Assembly (NCBI GenBank): GCA_050259135.1
Contig: JBLNAA010000160.1
Span: 1-55,227, forward strand
Source of the DNA: Methylocystaceae bacterium
GTDB taxonomy: Bacteria; Bacillota; Syntrophomonadia; Syntrophomonadales; JBLNAA01
Length of the DNA stretch: 55,227 nucleotides
Direction of reading: 5' to 3'
The translations under genes were made by a program, and so were the position numbers. Numbering within the stretch: position 1 is the stretch's first letter; each line of letters begins with the position of its first letter. Shown here piece after piece: positions 38,700 to 53,277 of the stretch. A model generated the notes under the pieces. That model ran no database searches. It saw nothing but the letters and a program-made list of their open reading frames with translations, and was not told the origin of the DNA.

Positions 38700-41600
38700 T
38701 TAGAAGCCCCGGCATTGCCGATCTCTTTTCATCCGTTGTTCAATTTCACGGTAAACACGATCAGCAATTTTTCTTATTTCGGTAGAACTAAACTCAACAT
38801 TCCTCGCCTCGGGCAGCTGCATCATATACTCGGTATTTATCACTGGATTTTGCCTGTCCCTGTCATTGGATTTAGCCTCTGCCGGGATTGTCCTTTCCCG
38901 CCGGTAATCAAAGCTAATCCCGGTACCCAGGGTTGAGTATGATAGTGATCTTTTATCAATATCTTTGATACCACGATGTCTTATGATATCTTGATCAGCA
39001 TTTTGGAAAAGCCGACCATGGTTTTGTCTCTCAGTTTGGGAGGTCAATACCCCGTTATGTTTTCTGTTTATCCCGCTCTCTCTATTTGGGCTGGTTCTAA
39101 GGCTTGTCCGGCGTAACACCTTTTCGTTAAACCGATTACCATAAGCACCATGGTCAATCCTCGGGGAAGCCACTATATTGGCGGCTGCTGGACTAACCTG
39201 ACTGCTAAAACCAGCTGGCACATCTGACATTAGCTGCCCGGCCGATAATAATACCCGATCGATACCTGCCCGGATACCCGGAAAAGGTTCATCCTGGTTA
39301 TACTCTGCCGGTGTTTGAGACCTTAATGTAACAGGTTCCTGTATTAACGTAGTTAATATAGGTCTGCCCACACCCAAATTACAGTTGAAATCCCTGATTC
39401 CCCAGCTCCCTGAATGATTTCGCTTCAACTGTCTATGGTTAGCGGAGACCACCATTCCTTTAGGGTTTTTAGTACCTATCATTGTTGTGAGAACCGTTAT
39501 CCCCAAATTAAAGCCCGGGATTGTTTTTGGGTGCAGCAGACGTTTGGTCAGACTGCTGACTTTCCGAACAGGTTCTGCTTGACTTAAAATCAAATTATCT
39601 GCTGAATACTGGATTCCCTTCAGCGTCGATGGGGCTTCCCTCTTACCTGTATCACCAGGCATAGTACGCAATCCTACAGATAAATCCGGCAGCCAACCGG
39701 CAAGCTTCTTACCTGTTCGCTGATCCAGCATAAAGGTTTTCTTGTTGACTATTCCACACAAGTCAGACAGCGGGCGTGTCGGCCACCTGTCAACCGATGG
39801 CCTGGCTGCACTGTATCTGCCCTCAGGCAAATATGGAGAAATACTTTGGCCCTTAGTTTTCTCCTTCCGTCTAATCACCGCTGCGGTAGATTGAGAACCC
39901 GATACAGGCTGCGGGTTTCTTACCGGAACCACCCTCTGATTGAACTGGTTTGGATGATTTCTATTGCGGAAATACCAAACATTGTTAGGCCATTGTACTG
40001 TCAGCCTGGCCGGATTAACACTGGCTGAAGCTCTTGGCGACAGGGTTATACCCGATCTTTGATAAACTCTTGATCCGGGTGCACCCCTTTGATACCAGGA
40101 AGCTCTTGCCCGTTGAACTAATCCCCGTTTCTGAACAGATGCCAGTGGTATATCTATGTTTAGTTTTCGTTTATGTCCTAATTCAGGAGCTAAACTTTGT
40201 TGTTGAATATAACCATCTGACGGTTTTGTTAGATCCTGTTGGGGATAAGCCTTCGCCATCGGTTTATATTCTTGCTGATTATATATTTCTATTTCCGGTT
40301 GTCCTAAGGGCTGGTTTTTTATCCAATAAGGTTTTTTGGCCATCTTTAAATCATAAGGGACTGCTTTGGGTTCTTCGGATATATTTGCTGCGCTAACCGC
40401 CTGTGTATTAGCAAATAAGCCAATTCTTATGAGTTTATGTCTATCAGCTATAGAACCAATAGCTAATGGTATCCATAATGGGTTATGGGATTGGGCTTCA
40501 AATTGGAATACATCAGCAGCAAAAACATTTGACATAAAATTCTTCGGATACTTGGGGGCAGGGTGTATGGTCATATTCTTAACCACTGGCCGGAAAGAAG
40601 GCTGTACATTGATACCCGGCTGTTCAGCACCCTTGAATACTGGTGTACGCCGCTTCTTGGTCAAAACCCCAGCCAGTCCTTGTCCGTGCCACCGGATTCC
40701 AGCTGTAAAATTATATAACCAGGGTGCTGCAGCCGAACCTGAAAGCAAATTTTCTTTTCCCTGACTGGCTGATAGGTTGCCTGATAGTGTATTTCCATTC
40801 CTCCTGATTATTGATTGACGGATCCATTCAGTTGGCACCGTAGCCGCACCCTGATGGTCACCGTTTTTATTACGGTTAAACCCAGTGCCGCCAATTACTG
40901 CTCTTATTTCAGTCGAGGATGGTTGTCGATAGTATAGATTGGCAGGTATTACATCCGCCCCCTGCAATTTACCGGCAAGTAATTGATGAATGCTATCATT
41001 TCGGTCACGGCTGACCGACAACCCGGCAGGGGGTATATGCTTATCCAGTATAGTTACCGAATGCCTGATTATTGATGATGCCTTTCCGGTTATTAATTGT
41101 TCGGCTGCATATATACGGTCAGCTACTGACCACGGCGAAACAGGTTTTCCAGCATTGGCTCCTGGCAGAACATTTCTTAGGATGGTATCAGGCACATTCC
41201 AATTATTGAATTTATAATATTCTGCTACTGCTTGGTTATAATCGGAACTACTACTTTTTTCGGGTGTTATTATACCGGTATCTTTACCGGGTATGGCCAA
41301 TCTTTTCCGTTGTAGGGGAACCGGCTTAATGGTGATACCGTGATTTATCTTATAAGTAAAGGTTGAATCCGGTTTACTGGAATGATACCTTTCCGCGTCC
41401 GTTGCGGCAATTATTCCTGTAGTCTGGGCCCGCCGAGAAATTATCCCCAAAATACCATTACCTGCAGGTGCCAGTCCGTACCCGTTCGGTTCGCGTTGTC
41501 CCGATCTTAGTCCAAAATCTACAGGTATAATGTGGGTTGAATCAGCATCACCTGGTAATTTAACCACTGGTACCTTACGGGTATTTTTCTGCTGTAAGCG

Positions 41601-42128
41601 ATCTAAAATCCACGGTTCTGTAAGCAGGATCATCCTGTTTTCAGGCGGTAAATAAACCTGCTCGGTGGAACGATGCCCAGTGTATAAAAAAGTCTTATTA
41701 CCGGTAACGTTATGGCGTGTGGATTCGTTTAAGTAATATTTGACCGATGAATCTTTGGTATTACTAATTTTGTTTTTCTTATTTGTTGATTGTTGTTCAA
41801 ACAAAAACAGCCGCAGTGCTTTCTCCAATGAGGACGAGAAGAACTGTGCCCCCTGGCTGCCAGTTAAGAATACTGAATGACGAAAAAGCCGCCCCCCGAT
41901 TTTCTGGTGGTCAGCCCCCTTGTTTTCCAGTATCAGTTTAAGGTTAACCATTAGCGAATCAGACGCAGAATATTTATCAGCATTACTTCCCTGCCGCCAG
42001 ATAAAAGAAACCGATCGAAAAGGATATACCCCGGTCTGCAGGTATTTATTCTTGATCCGTTCGGCAAATGTCTGCTTCTGATTGCTATTATTGGTCCTTA
42101 CTATTTTTTGTTTTTGCGGCAACAGCAT
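38700..42128 (-). CDS. Large basic, probably disordered protein; tape-measure-like by position
   Basis: 1142-aa open frame between tube and LysM genes; only recognisable part is the C-terminal helix IRKIADRVYREIEQRMKRDRQCRG. Confidence 0.6.
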   Translation of the reverse strand: MLLPQKQKIVRTNNSNQKQTFAERIKNKYLQTGVYPFRSVSFIWRQGSNADKYSASDSLMVNLKLILENKGADHQKIGGRLFRHSVFLTGSQGAQFFSSSLEKALRLFLFEQQSTNKKNKISNTKDSSVKYYLNESTRHNVTGNKTFLYTGHRSTEQVYLPPENRMILLTEPWILDRLQQKNTRKVPVVKLPGDADSTHIIPVDFGLRSGQREPNGYGLAPAGNGILGIISRRAQTTGIIAATDAERYHSSKPDSTFTYKINHGITIKPVPLQRKRLAIPGKDTGIITPEKSSSSDYNQAVAEYYKFNNWNVPDTILRNVLPGANAGKPVSPWSVADRIYAAEQLITGKASSIIRHSVTILDKHIPPAGLSVSRDRNDSIHQLLAGKLQGADVIPANLYYRQPSSTEIRAVIGGTGFNRNKNGDHQGAATVPTEWIRQSIIRRNGNTLSGNLSASQGKENLLSGSAAAPWLYNFTAGIRWHGQGLAGVLTKKRRTPVFKGAEQPGINVQPSFRPVVKNMTIHPAPKYPKNFMSNVFAADVFQFEAQSHNPLWIPLAIGSIADRHKLIRIGLFANTQAVSAANISEEPKAVPYDLKMAKKPYWIKNQPLGQPEIEIYNQQEYKPMAKAYPQQDLTKPSDGYIQQQSLAPELGHKRKLNIDIPLASVQKRGLVQRARASWYQRGAPGSRVYQRSGITLSPRASASVNPARLTVQWPNNVWYFRNRNHPNQFNQRVVPVRNPQPVSGSQSTAAVIRRKEKTKGQSISPYLPEGRYSAARPSVDRWPTRPLSDLCGIVNKKTFMLDQRTGKKLAGWLPDLSVGLRTMPGDTGKREAPSTLKGIQYSADNLILSQAEPVRKVSSLTKRLLHPKTIPGFNLGITVLTTMIGTKNPKGMVVSANHRQLKRNHSGSWGIRDFNCNLGVGRPILTTLIQEPVTLRSQTPAEYNQDEPFPGIRAGIDRVLLSAGQLMSDVPAGFSSQVSPAAANIVASPRIDHGAYGNRFNEKVLRRTSLRTSPNRESGINRKHNGVLTSQTERQNHGRLFQNADQDIIRHRGIKDIDKRSLSYSTLGTGISFDYRRERTIPAEAKSNDRDRQNPVINTEYMMQLPEARNVEFSSTEIRKIADRVYREIEQRMKRDRQCRGF

Positions 42129-43284: not shown

Positions 43285-43320
43285 GGGAAAGGCGGATATA
43301 AATATATATCCACCTTTCTC
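43285..43320 (-). other. Stem-loop after the sheath + tube-1 genes
   Basis: Minus strand GAGAAAGGTGGATATA-tatt-TATATCCGCCTTTCCC with no following U-tract. Confidence 0.6.
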
Positions 43321-43794: not shown

Positions 43795-45522
43795 CTATTC
43801 GCTATCAGCAGTCTTTTGAGTGATTCTGAAGATGACAAACTCGGCCGGTTTGACGGGGGCAACACCGATAACACATATCAGGCGGCCATTATCAATGTCG
43901 TCCTGGGTCATGGTGGTACGGTCTACCCTGACAAAGAATGCTTCGTCCGGGGTACCGCCCATGAGTGCGCCACCTCTCCAGACACCCAGCAGGAAGCTGT
44001 AGATAGTGCGCTGAACCCTGGCCCATAGTCTCTCATCATTTGGCTCAAACACAACCCAGTTACTGCCGTTCTTAATTGACTGCTCCAGGAAGATGAACAG
44101 CCTTCTCACGTTGATGTACTTCCAAATCGCATTGGAACTGCAAGTCCGGGCACCCCAAACCCTTATTCCCTGACCAGTAAAAGAGCGGATCAAGTTAACA
44201 CCCTTGGGATTTAAGATGTCCTGTTCCCCTTTATTGTACTGGCAATCGAGTCCTACGCATGCCCGAACCACTTCATTGGCTGGTGCTTTAAATACTCCGC
44301 GGGTATTGTCTGAACGTGCATAAATACCAATGATGGAACCGGAAGGCGGAATAAATATATTACGTTTATCCAGGGGATCGAATACCTGCAGCCAGGGATG
44401 ATAGAGGGCTGCATAATCAGAGTCAAATATATTGCGGTGTTTCTGAACATCAGCTACACTTTTTAATTCCCGGGGAATATCAAGAACCGCAAAACGGCTG
44501 GTCAGGTTTTCGCAGTGAGCTACCAGAGCTAACTGGACATTGGGATCGGTCACACCGGGAACCGCCATGATGCTGACCTCATCATTATCGATAAAAGCCT
44601 TGATACCAGTGCGCTTGCCTGGACCGCGATCTTCACCCATAAAGTCAGCGGCGGAAAGAGCGCCCAAAGAACCATCGCTGCCGCCGACAAGGGCCATCCA
44701 GAATTCTTCTTCACCTGCTTTATCACCAGCGATAATATCAAAAGGAACCCCAACTGGTGCAGCCGGATTATGCTCCACTTTGATCAGAGCTGAACGGGTT
44801 AATCTCTTCTCTATATAGTTAGCTGCTGCGGCATTTAATGACAGGTTTTCATAAGTTTCCGAATCACTGCCATAAAACACCTGCATGCTGAATTCTGAGG
44901 TATAAAGCAGTTTGGTGGGAAGCAGTTGCTTATCAACAACATTTCCCTGCAGAGGATCTTCTAACTCAATGACATTATCCTGAGATTTAACCACATGGGT
45001 ATAAGATCTGCTCTTACCATTGTCAAATACGACTACATCACCGACATTAAACCCGGCGCTGTTTTTAACCCGATAAGTTTTCTCTCCAAGCACTTCCAAA
45101 ATTGGAGTTTTGGCTTTGCTGGCGGGAGTAAATAATATCCTGACTTTATCTCCCCACATACCTGGATTGCGGGCCCAAATCCTTAGAATCTGTGCATCCT
45201 GGTTTTCCTCAGTAAAATTACAGGCTGCTTTAGCATCGGGTGGAATGACCCGCATTACATAGCAGCGTGATCCGCCGTTAATAAAGAAATGTTCGACTGC
45301 ATAAGCCAGATAGCGGTAATCAGCAAAAGCATTTTCAGACAAATAACTACCAAAAATTCTTAAGAAATCGCCAAAATTGGTAACCAATTCGGGCAACCCT
45401 TCAACCGGTCCCTTCTCTGCCAGACCGAGGAACCCGGCGGTACTGGTGCTGACGCCCTCCATTGGTTTGCCACCACTTTCAAACTCCTCAACATAAACCC
45501 CTGGTGATAAATACTCCGGCAT
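43795..45522 (-). CDS. Contractile tail sheath protein
   Basis: YLSPGVYVEE, FFINGG, AALYHPW, PPSG, GVFKAPAN, VWGART, YINVRR, VFEPN, APVKPAEFVIFR. Confidence 0.96.
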   Translation of the reverse strand: MPEYLSPGVYVEEFESGGKPMEGVSTSTAGFLGLAEKGPVEGLPELVTNFGDFLRIFGSYLSENAFADYRYLAYAVEHFFINGGSRCYVMRVIPPDAKAACNFTEENQDAQILRIWARNPGMWGDKVRILFTPASKAKTPILEVLGEKTYRVKNSAGFNVGDVVVFDNGKSRSYTHVVKSQDNVIELEDPLQGNVVDKQLLPTKLLYTSEFSMQVFYGSDSETYENLSLNAAAANYIEKRLTRSALIKVEHNPAAPVGVPFDIIAGDKAGEEEFWMALVGGSDGSLGALSAADFMGEDRGPGKRTGIKAFIDNDEVSIMAVPGVTDPNVQLALVAHCENLTSRFAVLDIPRELKSVADVQKHRNIFDSDYAALYHPWLQVFDPLDKRNIFIPPSGSIIGIYARSDNTRGVFKAPANEVVRACVGLDCQYNKGEQDILNPKGVNLIRSFTGQGIRVWGARTCSSNAIWKYINVRRLFIFLEQSIKNGSNWVVFEPNDERLWARVQRTIYSFLLGVWRGGALMGGTPDEAFFVRVDRTTMTQDDIDNGRLICVIGVAPVKPAEFVIFRITQKTADSE

Positions 45523-45528
45523 TCATTT

Positions 45529-45596
45529 CCGGTTGCTGAGTTGTTACACAGTTGTCCTTACACCTGTATAACCCAGAAACCAGGCCCCTCCCTTCC
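45529..45596 (-). promoter_or_regulatory. Sheath translation initiation region: distal SD plus 55-nt intervening hairpin
   Basis: GGAAGGGAGGGG (45596-45585), hairpin 45583-45529, then AAATGA-ATG. Confidence 0.55.
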
Positions 45597-46330
45597 AAAT
45601 TAGAATGACTATACTATCAGTTAAGCTTCTAAATAGCCGTTCTGGTATACGAATCTCATTCACCAAAAACAGAAATCTTAACTGATTTTCTTATTGTAAG
45701 AATCCAGCTTATCACTGCTCTCGGCGAGTATGCAGATAATCAGAGCGGAGTTAACATGTCCTAAAACTGCTGTCAACTCACCTCCTTAAATCTACTTGCT
45801 CCGGTGGTCTGGCAAATTCAGAAGCTTTACTCCCCAGTTACGAAATATATATAAATGTATATTAATAACTCCGGTTAACAATTAGTTAAATTATTAAGTT
45901 AAATGAATGATGAGACATTACTTTAACCAAAAGGTCGTCGATAATCATGTAAAACAGTTTATCGCAAATTATGGCCCTTTCCATAAATCAAGGCCCGCCT
46001 CCATCCATATATATGGAGTATTGATTATTACCGCCCTCTACAGCAGAATATATGCCCGTTACTCATCAATTAATCTTAATACCCTATAATTTTTATAAAT
46101 GGTATTATCTGTACCACTTTTTCTTGTATGTTATCACATATATTGTTAGATTGAATATATTAAAGAATATCTAAATTCGTGTATTTCTATGGAAGATTCT
46201 CCTATAAAGAAATTTACTTCTTTAATTTTGTATTAGAATCAACACAGTAATTCATAAATTGTTATTAATAAATATTCACCTCGGAAGATACAGCCTTAAA
46301 CTGATTATCTTTGCTCTCAAAGGAGTTCAT

Positions 46331-47425
46331 ATGCGTATAAGATGGATAGATATGATTCTGCTGGCTGCACTGGTACTTGTGGTTAACGCTCCGCTGTCAG
46401 GATGCTTAAACCGCGTAAGCAGCAACAGAGATATTAAAGTGATGATTCCTTCAACCTCAATTGTCTTTGCTGATGCCGAGTGGGAAAGCATAAAGATGCA
46501 TAGTCGGATTGCTGGATATATCATTGAGCATGGTTATGGTTATACTCCCAGGTATTTAACTGGAGAAAACCTGCCGCTTTTTAAAGCCCTCAATCAGGGT
46601 GATGTTGATATTATGATGGAAGTCTGGACGCTGGATTACCCAGTATTATGGAAGCAATTATTGAAGGACGGTAAAGTAAAGGCTTTGGCCACTAATTATA
46701 TCGGCACTCAGGGCTGGTACATTCCTGCTTACCTGGCAGAAGGAGATAAAGAACGCGGAATCGAACCGCAGATACCTAATATTAAAAGCGTTTTCGATCT
46801 GCCAGCTTATCAAAAGTATTTCAAATTATCCGCATCCAGCAGCATGGGAATCATTTATAACGCCCCTCGGGGTTGGCCAGCTGAAGAAACTAATAAGAAA
46901 AAGTTTAATAATTATTTTCTCTTTACATCATTTACCCTGCTGCCCGGTGATTCTGAAGCCGCCTTGGCCGCAAGCCTGGATAAGGCTTATGCCCGGGGAA
47001 ATGCCTGGCTTGGTTATGCTCGTGACCCCAGTATGGTAACTGCCGGCCATAAAATGCTGATGCTCCGCGAGGAGCCTTATAATGAAGAAATCTGGAATGC
47101 TGACCGAATGTGCGCCTACCCGGATTGCGACGTGGTTATCGCAGCGAACTCCGGCATGAATAAGAAAGCCCCGGAAGTTTTAGATTTTCTGCAAAATTAC
47201 CAAACGACCCGGAATCAAAATGAGGAAATACTCCTCTGTTTAAATAAAGCCAACGGTAACCGGGAACAAGCTGCCCGTGAATGGTTATTGAAAAACCCCG
47301 ACGTGTGGGGGCAGTGGGTACCTGAAGCTATTGCCAAAAAAGTCTGGGCTGACCTTAACCCGGCACCGGTTAATAAAAAACCTGGTTTATCCCAAAGGCT
47401 GCTTAAACTATTTAAAATCAAATAG
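46331..47425 (+). CDS. Glycine betaine/choline-type substrate-binding lipoprotein (ProX/OpuAC-like), orphan
   Basis: Lipobox LSGC, FADAEWES, IIEHGYGY, GDVDIMMEVW, QGWYIP; ATG 46331 follows AAAGGAG. Confidence 0.85.
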   Translation: MRIRWIDMILLAALVLVVNAPLSGCLNRVSSNRDIKVMIPSTSIVFADAEWESIKMHSRIAGYIIEHGYGYTPRYLTGENLPLFKALNQGDVDIMMEVWTLDYPVLWKQLLKDGKVKALATNYIGTQGWYIPAYLAEGDKERGIEPQIPNIKSVFDLPAYQKYFKLSASSSMGIIYNAPRGWPAEETNKKKFNNYFLFTSFTLLPGDSEAALAASLDKAYARGNAWLGYARDPSMVTAGHKMLMLREEPYNEEIWNADRMCAYPDCDVVIAANSGMNKKAPEVLDFLQNYQTTRNQNEEILLCLNKANGNREQAAREWLLKNPDVWGQWVPEAIAKKVWADLNPAPVNKKPGLSQRLLKLFKIK

Positions 47426-51949: not shown

Positions 51950-52456
51950 TTGGGTGCTTATACCGCAATTGCCGATGCCGGGGCCACCATCATTGAGATA
52001 CTGCGAGACAGTTTGTGTCCGGAACCAATTGCTTCTCCGGACTTAATCGGCCTGTGCTCACCGGCCGAAACCGGTGATCTCCAGCTGGGATTATATCTGT
52101 ACTCGGTCAAGCAGAACCGCGAGTACCGAATGGATGGTATAGTCTTAACCCTCTACTACCTGTTGACCGCCTACTCCAGTGCCGATATCCAACAGCGGGC
52201 CTATGATGAAGACTATATTCTGGGTGCAGCTATCCAGGCTCTGAATGAGAATGGAACCATAAACAGTGCTTATCTGCAGGGTTCATTGGGGAGCAATGGA
52301 GAGGATATCAGAAACGATCTCTTCTACGTATCACCGGAAGATATTCAAAAGATCTGGATATTCCCAAACATACCTTATCGCACTTCAGTTGCAATCATGG
52401 TCTATCCTATCATTATTGATAATGGTGGTTTTGCCGCGGGTCCCCGGGTACGGTAA
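51950..52456 (+). CDS. DUF4255/Pvc16-like cap (sheath terminator) protein
   Basis: AIADAG.TI...L, LGLYLY, LYYLLTAY, LGAAIQAL, IW.FPNIPYRTSV; TTG follows GGGGG. Confidence 0.78.
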   Translation: MGAYTAIADAGATIIEILRDSLCPEPIASPDLIGLCSPAETGDLQLGLYLYSVKQNREYRMDGIVLTLYYLLTAYSSADIQQRAYDEDYILGAAIQALNENGTINSAYLQGSLGSNGEDIRNDLFYVSPEDIQKIWIFPNIPYRTSVAIMVYPIIIDNGGFAAGPRVR

Positions 52457-52476
52457 GCCGGGAGTGAGGAGATAAT

Positions 52477-53277
52477 ATGCAGGAATATATGACCAGCACC
52501 ATAAAACTAGGGCACAAGGTGTCATTCGTGCTCTGGCTGATCGATCAATTTAGTTCATTGGGATGCAACGAAGAGGTTGCTGTTTTCTTGAACGGTGCAC
52601 CAGCTAATTTTCAGCGCAAAGCTGGAGGTTACCTGGTATTTACTGACTTGGAAGAAGATCAATATCAGGTTGCTGTCAGCTCCCCGTATTATTTGACCGA
52701 ACATCTGGTAGTCAAGCCTTCCGGCCTGGATCGTGCTGACCCAACCGTCTATATACCCTTGAAGCCCGCTCCCGCTTATCGATTTAACCCTGGTACAACC
52801 TTAATCAGGGCTTCACTGGTCACACGACAAAATGAACCTCTTGCTGCCGCTATTACCGCTACTATTATTAGCGATATCTGCGCTCGGGCCAGATTGGGCC
52901 GTCAAGGGGCCAAATCCGGAACTGTCGAGCTGCCCCTGGTCGATGTAACCGGGCGGCTGGCACCCGGCGACCTCTTGTTAATCCGCTCTCTGGATAGTAA
53001 AGACGGAGAAATATGTGAGATAAGTTCGATGGGGTCCGGTGAAGGAGTCTACTCCCTGAAGAATCCGCTGTCAATGGATCATAACCGGGGTGACCTGCTG
53101 ATGCCGGTTGTTGCGAGCTGCAGTGATAGCCGCGGGGAAGCAGTTCTGGCTCTTCGCCAGCTTCGGCAAAAGGAGTGTCGGGTACAGGTAGAGGTCGGTA
53201 CCGGGAAATCCAAGTCGGTACAGGAGGTTCAAATAACCAACGGACAAGTACACCAGCTGGGTAAAATCACGGTTTAA
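52477..53277 (+). CDS. eCIS-associated beta-rich hypothetical protein
   Basis: 266 aa; GYLVFTDL, LKPAPAYRFNPGTTLIR; co-oriented directly after Pvc16-like gene, with GAGGAG SD. Confidence 0.6.
   Translation: MQEYMTSTIKLGHKVSFVLWLIDQFSSLGCNEEVAVFLNGAPANFQRKAGGYLVFTDLEEDQYQVAVSSPYYLTEHLVVKPSGLDRADPTVYIPLKPAPAYRFNPGTTLIRASLVTRQNEPLAAAITATIISDICARARLGRQGAKSGTVELPLVDVTGRLAPGDLLLIRSLDSKDGEICEISSMGSGEGVYSLKNPLSMDHNRGDLLMPVVASCSDSRGEAVLALRQLRQKECRVQVEVGTGKSKSVQEVQITNGQVHQLGKITV

Follow-up and report, generated by a model that had tools for sequence, protein, structure and literature searches.

To our knowledge, few natural split ribosome-binding sites are known, and the textbook cases are two genes of the coliphage T4. 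Split or "accommodated" translation initiation regions in T4 were reportedly described by Nivinskas and colleagues in 1999 and by Malys and Nivinskas in 2009, and another kind of upstream Shine-Dalgarno sequence (SD), the STAB-SD of cry3A, is said to go back to Agaisse and Lereclus in 1996. According to the sections cited here, in T4 genes 38 and 25 a hairpin cuts the spacing between the SD and the start codon from 22 to 5 nucleotides (nt) and from 27 to 11 nt, respectively, and mutations that destabilize the intervening structure lower translation initiation; the gene 25 site is present in close T-even phages and absent from distant ones (PMC3014915). The STAB-SD of cry3A from Bacillus thuringiensis, as far as the cited section goes, binds 16S rRNA without directing initiation (PMC4113751). 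Here we describe the leader of a tail sheath gene from an extracellular contractile injection system (eCIS) encoded in 55,227 nt of DNA of a Methylocystaceae bacterium, placed by GTDB in the Syntrophomonadales of the Bacillota (assembly GCA_050259135.1, contig JBLNAA010000160.1; "the window" denotes this whole stretch). On the basis of sequence analysis we propose, with a probability of roughly three in four, that this leader is a split, hairpin-bridged ribosome-binding site (RBS) of the T4 gene 25/38 type.

The sheath gene (43795..45522, minus strand) is an open reading frame of 575 amino acids (aa) with Pfam matches to Phage_sheath_1 and Phage_sheath_1C, and it is the first gene of the minus-strand structural operon. 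Its start codon, ATG at 45520..45522, opens a conserved N-terminus, M[PA]EYLSPGVY; the form M-P-E-Y-L-S-P-G-V-Y is common to nine of the nine orthologues inspected, and all collected orthologues begin with M[PA][ED]YLSPGVY. Because an in-frame TGA (45525-45523) directly adjoins this ATG, a longer form of the sheath is excluded. Within the 120 nt that lead up to the ATG, no sequence matches the anti-SD more strongly than the distal SD GGAAGGGAGGGG (45585..45596, minus strand), in which the 10-nt segment GAAGGGAGGG gives a duplex of -15.8 kcal/mol with an anti-SD motif. It is followed, on the same strand, by a single C at 45584, by a 55-nt hairpin predicted by RNAfold (45529..45583; 22 pairs, apical loop AAGG), whose basal stem CUGGUU/AACCGG lines up with the stem that covaries across the family, and by an unpaired 6-nt spacer AAATGA (45523..45528), which holds the in-frame TGA as well as an out-of-frame ATG (45526-45524). 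The GGAGG core of the distal SD thus lies 64 nt from the sheath ATG, or 9 nt once the hairpin is subtracted. The sole purine patch near the ATG is a GGA at 45530-45528, and the best proximal SD duplex reaches -3.5 kcal/mol. In the 86-nt stretch as a whole RNAfold finds one hairpin of 22 pairs (6+6+7+3) with a minimum free energy of -26.2 kcal/mol and z = -2.22, six of 200 shuffles folding as well; the hairpin spacer alone folds with -24.1 kcal/mol (z of -4.5 against mononucleotide shuffles), and the 55-nt hairpin is kept when folded within a 241-nt context. A single-sequence z of -2.2 is only moderate, and the case for more than chance pairing is the covariation among relatives described below. 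A first-pass annotation of the window had described this succession of distal SD, 55-nt hairpin, AAATGA and ATG, along with the weak GGA and the preceding in-frame TGA that leaves no upstream start, and the sequence reads as it said; the one long hairpin also stood, although the helix counts given there (6+5+8+3) did not agree with those of RNAfold.

According to the proposed mechanism, the 30S subunit would pair with the long and strong SD at 45596-45585, and the following 55 nt would form a hairpin lying outside the mRNA channel. This would leave no more than one nt before the hairpin and six nt after it between the SD and the AUG at 45522, which would be placed in the P site once the hairpin loops out, so that initiation could proceed as on a normal site. 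Since the folding of the hairpin would set the distance between SD and AUG, translation of the sheath, the most abundant protein of the particle, would require the fold. We favor this reading because the proximal SD is weak and because most other genes in the eCIS cluster possess ordinary SDs, 5-10 nt from their starts. Both the use of the distal SD by ribosomes and a drop in translation upon unfolding of the hairpin are inferred.

Orthologous leaders were collected from two sources: 10 of 60 related genomes contributed sheath orthologues, and 80 loci were kept of 577 confirmed matches in a species-level genome collection (proteins 65-88% identical, from Syntrophomonas, Paenibacillus, Brevibacillus, Cohnella, Lachnospiraceae, Oscillospiraceae and others). 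The resulting 89 leaders, whose sheath proteins are 65-91% identical, comprise 84 that differ in the last 90 nt and constitute the non-identical set; the SD site of one of them (locus L044) was placed by hand. When the last 120 nt of each leader are compared, the strongest anti-SD match is well away from the ATG in 74 of the 84; the other 10 have no hairpin, and their SD stands directly before the ATG, at 5-10 nt. The spacer between SD and ATG is predicted to fold as one hairpin, 23-70 nt long, in 74 of 74 distal-SD leaders, so that 1-4 unpaired nt remain ahead of the hairpin and 5-10 behind it. As a result the distance from the GGAGG core to the ATG, which varies between 33 and 77 nt in the raw sequence, shrinks to 6-13 nt when the hairpin is subtracted, and amounts to 9 nt in 38 of the 74. 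The fold energies, compared with dinucleotide shuffles, have a median z of -3.5, and 57/74 lie below -2. The distal SD in these leaders is unusually long and GAAAGGAGG-like, with a median of -15.3 kcal/mol over a 10-nt segment, and the proximal SD has a median of -5.5 kcal/mol in hairpin leaders versus -11.6 kcal/mol in hairpin-less ones; it is weaker than -8 kcal/mol in 69 of the 74 hairpin leaders, five reaching -8 or stronger.

A long, GAAAGGAGG-like SD far from the start codon is also what one would expect of a 5' stabilizer of the STAB-SD type. In that case a parked 30S subunit and the hairpin would block 5'-to-3' decay by RNase J1, the AUG would use no SD or the weak GGA, and the element would set the half-life of the mRNA rather than the geometry of initiation. 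This is the main rival of our proposal, and there is more to be said for it than the resemblance of the SD to that of cry3A: the leader is long, it is intercistronic in Paenibacillus, where a processed 5' end would need protection, and the window has a second, perfect SD, AAGGAGGTGA (45778-45787, minus strand), further upstream. We consider it quite unlikely, since genes with a STAB-SD, which by definition does not direct initiation, keep a working RBS of their own at the start codon, and no competent proximal SD was found here. Moreover, a stabilizer has no need for a fixed folded distance, yet this distance is held within its narrow range while the raw distance varies more than that, and loss of the hairpin puts the SD at canonical spacing, at four separate places in the tree of sheath proteins. 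The STAB-SD explanation therefore leaves both the conserved folded spacing and the missing proximal SD unaccounted for. On the other hand, an SD of this strength could plausibly stabilize the mRNA as a side effect, and the two roles are compatible.

The split-RBS reading predicts selection on the pairing of the hairpin, on which the relatives bear directly. For the 23 short-hairpin leaders RNAalifold gives a 9-pair stem with compensatory changes in 9/9 pairs. When a stem of 10 pairs is scored in this alignment, 91.7% of the cells are paired; shuffling the columns lowers this to 72.4%, and sliding the partners to 23-53%. There are 56 double-change cells versus 15.4 in shuffles. In 454,750 bases from 100 loci, a covariance model built from the same 23 leaders matched 67 sites at E<=1, and all of them end at the sheath ATG. 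In the alignment of 62 distinct rows, which is itself fitted to the covariance model, 95.2% of the cells pair, with 86 double-change cells versus 17.8 in shuffled alignments; the slid controls over both alignments give 23-62%. The basal stem covaries, nine of its ten pairs showing compensatory double changes, in line with the covariation among related leaders that the first-pass annotation had named as a check. The sequence before the SD is hardly alignable even among the nearest relatives (82-91% protein identity); as the SD-hairpin unit is kept while its flanks are not, the unit is under selection.

These data also bear on the idea that the hairpin is a chance or neutral structure, such as a mobile-insertion relic or an inverted-repeat operator acting at the level of DNA, with translation starting in some other way. 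The modest z of the single sequence and the ease with which random spacers fold end to end are compatible with it. However, the compensatory changes in the stem, the conservation of the element where flanking non-coding DNA is not conserved, and the variable distance between the arms, which is ill-suited to a dimeric DNA-binding site, all speak against it, and so does copy number: the element is single-copy in the 2.38-Mb genome, which also disposes of the miniature inverted-repeat transposable element that the first-pass annotation had kept as an alternative. In a BLAST search of the genome the 86 nt matched only themselves and a 14-nt chance sequence, and the covariance model found the sheath leader as the best match and no second convincing copy. 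The chance explanation was already disfavored, and we regard it as extremely improbable. The runner-up match of the covariance model, at L097 1480-1600 (G000:C103), is not followed by a gene start; it lies ~190 nt before a gene of 347 aa and holds a stretch resembling a T-box motif.

Alternatively, the hairpin could be primarily an operator, bound by a trans-acting factor (a translational repressor or activator, an autogenous eCIS protein, CsrA or RNase III) that controls sheath synthesis, with the bridging of the SD only secondary. The stem base keeps its sequence even among leaders that cannot be aligned on either side of the element, the element persists across distant hosts, and in the window the apex reads AAGGA in a genome that encodes a CsrA (csrA gene). 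Nonetheless, the stem positions covary instead of staying fixed, even close relatives differ in the sequence and length (23-70 nt) of their loops and upper stems, four lineages do without the hairpin, and no candidate binding protein was identified. The apical CsrA site suggested by the first-pass annotation did not survive comparison: the closest relatives (L004, L011 and L016) lack the AAGGA apex, and an unpaired GGA occurs inside the hairpin in 13 of the 74 leaders versus 31% of shuffles, which does not support a conserved CsrA site in the loop. As to RNase III, hairpins of 9-10 pairs are poor substrates of this enzyme, which likewise counts against an operator. We therefore hold out little hope for this explanation. 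The notion of a translational switch, voiced in the same annotation, found no support: no conserved alternative pairing was found in the leaders. A different way to read the conserved stem base would be to regard the hairpin as a conserved, folding-dependent ON element of Gram-positive eCIS, and more than a passive bridge, its sequence-conserved basal stem beside the SD serving as a recognition site for the ribosome platform or a trans-acting factor, so that sheath synthesis, and with it particle production, would be gated post-transcriptionally. This is a rather doubtful possibility; if true, contractile injection systems would have a new class of cis-regulatory RNA of their own.

The distribution of the hairpin fits the split RBS well. 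In a phylogeny of 89 sheath proteins built with FastTree, with four distant sheaths as the outgroup (L011 was left out on account of its interrupted frame), hairpin-less leaders occur at four separate places within the hairpin-bearing clade, support values not being considered: L063/L073; L086; L049/L052; and L059/61/62/64/66. Distant sheaths of the same phylum, 36-60% identical (L013, two each in L098 and L099, L104 and L105), have ordinary SDs and no hairpin, and the hairpin is present in L106 (75% identity) and L108 (59%); among the 11 more distant loci, L100-L103 gave no frame passing the N-terminal motif filter and fell outside the comparison. The picture that these data suggest is one of a single gain, long upkeep with free change in the length of the hairpin, and several clean losses that restored normal SD spacing. 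In Paenibacillus (L031), homologues of the window's Pvc16 and 266-aa genes precede the sheath gene on the same strand, so that the sheath is third in its operon. As two same-strand genes stand before it, the L031 leader is intercistronic. The SD-hairpin unit is thus kept whether the sheath is the first gene, as in the window, or the third, and the earlier description of the sheath as the first structural gene is right for the window and wrong for L031. The Pvc16-like gene and the 266-aa gene (no Pfam family) lie in the window at 51950-53277 (plus strand), in a divergent operon; their L031 counterparts, at 52-1374, encode proteins 36% and 32% identical to those of the window. At L011 (G039:C75) the sheath frame is broken by one TGA (326 aa, then a second piece), and the SD-hairpin leader is intact.

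Taken together, the occurrence of the layout in 74 of 84 leaders, the covarying stems and the normal spacing of the SD in hairpin-less leaders bear out the first-pass suggestion of a hairpin-bridged SD like those of T4 genes 25/38. Nonetheless, several points weigh against the split RBS. The use of the distal SD by ribosomes is deduced from layout and comparison, not from experiment, and the leaders compared are mutually related, which means that the counts given above are not independent. The end-to-end geometry of the fold is not relied upon here, because 40% of shuffled spacers (2978/7400) also give one helix with <=12 unpaired nt. The folded spacing has a mode of 9 nt, to which the width of the helix end must be added, and is longer than the mode of 6 nt in hairpin-less relatives. 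In 10 of the 74 leaders the predicted probability of the basal stem is <0.2 (folded in a context of -150..+30); these are L004 and a closely related Paenibacillus group, several members of which have z near 0. The sequence of the basal stem (CYGGUUUC / GRAAYCRG) is more conserved than pairing requires, which hints at a further constraint. Finally, no sigma-70-like promoter was found on the minus strand between 45300 and 46300, and the only RNA support comes from metatranscriptome contigs of a relative, which do not place the start of the transcript. One metatranscriptome run held 4% of the sampled words, and its contigs, 85-95% alike, are from a relative; an RNA-library contig of this relative covers 45553-45641 and 45723-45782, though such contigs show no ends, their gaps in coverage carry no interpretable signal, and they may include DNA.

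Other identities of the leader were considered and rejected. No U-tract follows the hairpin and a terminator scan returned none on the minus strand, which disposes of a terminator or attenuator. A conserved small reading frame served by the distal SD was likewise dropped: an ATG, GTG or TTG follows the core by 4-12 nt in only 20 of the 74 leaders, and the lengths of the frames are unrelated. An apparently conserved upstream micro-frame in Paenibacillus proved to be the C-terminus of the preceding 267-aa gene, and a repeat built on the heptamer TGGTTTC was discarded, as it is not enriched in the window (12 found, 8.1 expected). Rfam searches gave only snoRNA noise, with E above 4, for 44800-46400 of the window, and no matches at E<=1 for eight orthologous loci. 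In a genome-wide scan for the same layout 32 starts passed the geometry, and eight were left after those with a start codon right behind the SD had been dropped; the sheath leader ranks first among the eight, and the other seven are candidates for the layout from the scan alone.

The upstream part of the leader (45597..45787, minus strand) is poorly conserved even in close relatives and includes a long hairpin (arms 45616-45628 / 45674-45686). The second SD mentioned above precedes a TTG-started frame of 32 codons (45678-45776), whose stop falls in the 5' arm of this long hairpin. In L004 and L005 a similar GGAGGTGA is followed by frames of only 7 and 4 codons, and the peptide is therefore not conserved. 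In the Paenibacillus leaders (L027-L035 and relatives), ~40-60 nt before the SD, there is a perfect palindrome of 12 base pairs, TGGACACGTCCA, beside a TATACAAAAT-like box; these may be an operator and a promoter within the operon.

The gene cluster is assigned to an eCIS of the Afp/PVC-like kind because of the Pfam families of the genes around the sheath: 18 of the 22 proteins scanned have Pfam matches, 13 of them to named eCIS families. Downstream of the sheath, on the same strand, follow genes for two gp19-type tube proteins, LysM-tube, GPD, base_V, gp25, two Baseplate_J proteins and Tail_P2_I, and on the plus strand, beyond an OpuAC gene, there are an eCIS_core protein, an AAA ATPase with a winged-helix domain, Pvc16 and the 266-aa protein. 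Thus, sheath, tube, baseplate and spike genes occur together with an AAA ATPase, Pvc16 and a protein with the eCIS core domain. The OpuAC gene (46259-47425, plus strand), which encodes a glycine-betaine-type substrate-binding protein, lies between the sheath leader and the eCIS_core, ATPase and Pvc16 genes and looks like a passenger within the locus. A protein of 1142 aa (38700-42128, minus strand), which has no Pfam match, occupies the usual position of tape-measure-like proteins. In the 78-nt gap after the first tube gene there is a hairpin of 14 pairs (43287-43318, minus strand; GAAAGGTGGATATA / TATATCCGCCTTTC, loop TATT), with no U-tract behind it and with an SD-like GAAAGGTGG in its 5' arm; the gene that follows (142 aa, start 43257) has no SD nearby. 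This hairpin could be a decay barrier or a partial terminator, setting the sheath and tube genes apart from those that follow in the operon.

If the sheath leader is a split RBS, its relatives offer more than 70 natural variants of one site, with hairpins of 23-70 nt, covarying stems and four lineages in which the hairpin was deleted and the SD moved back. Such variants would form a ready-made mutational series for the study of how the 30S subunit accommodates a large structure between the SD and the start codon. There is also a practical side, as eCIS particles are being engineered as protein-delivery devices: heterologous expression of a Gram-positive eCIS, or the annotation of its starts and RBS strengths, would go wrong if the sheath leader were taken as SD-less.

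With respect to known systems, the leader resembles that of cry3A with its STAB-SD: both come from Gram-positive bacteria and have a long GAAAGGAGG-type SD a long way before the start codon. However, the STAB-SD, in the part of the literature cited, lies near a processed 5' end and is accompanied by a separate RBS at the gene, whereas the sheath leader has no good proximal RBS and conserves the folded distance to the AUG. The T4 sites are closer. In T4 genes 38 and 25, as predicted for the sheath leader, the SD is too far from the AUG and the intervening hairpin restores a working distance; in both systems a clade of relatives keeps the stem and the arrangement is missing from more distant ones (for T4, according to the section cited); and in both the genes are structural genes of a contractile tail. 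On the other hand, the gene here is an eCIS sheath with no sequence relation to the T4 sites, its host is Gram-positive with a long SD whereas T4 is a coliphage, and the T4 cases have been proven by mutation and probing whereas the eCIS leader is known from sequence comparison. The dimensions also differ, the gaps of 22 and 27 nt in T4 contrasting with 64 nt in the eCIS sheath of the window (33-77 nt in relatives). No description of the sheath leader was found in the open-access full-text literature (supplements lay outside the search), and thus the mechanism is of a known kind while the instance is new as far as the full-text literature shows. It is distinct from the T4 cases in its scale, with hairpins of up to 70 nt and dozens of covarying variants, spread over several Gram-positive classes with a mobile gene cluster.

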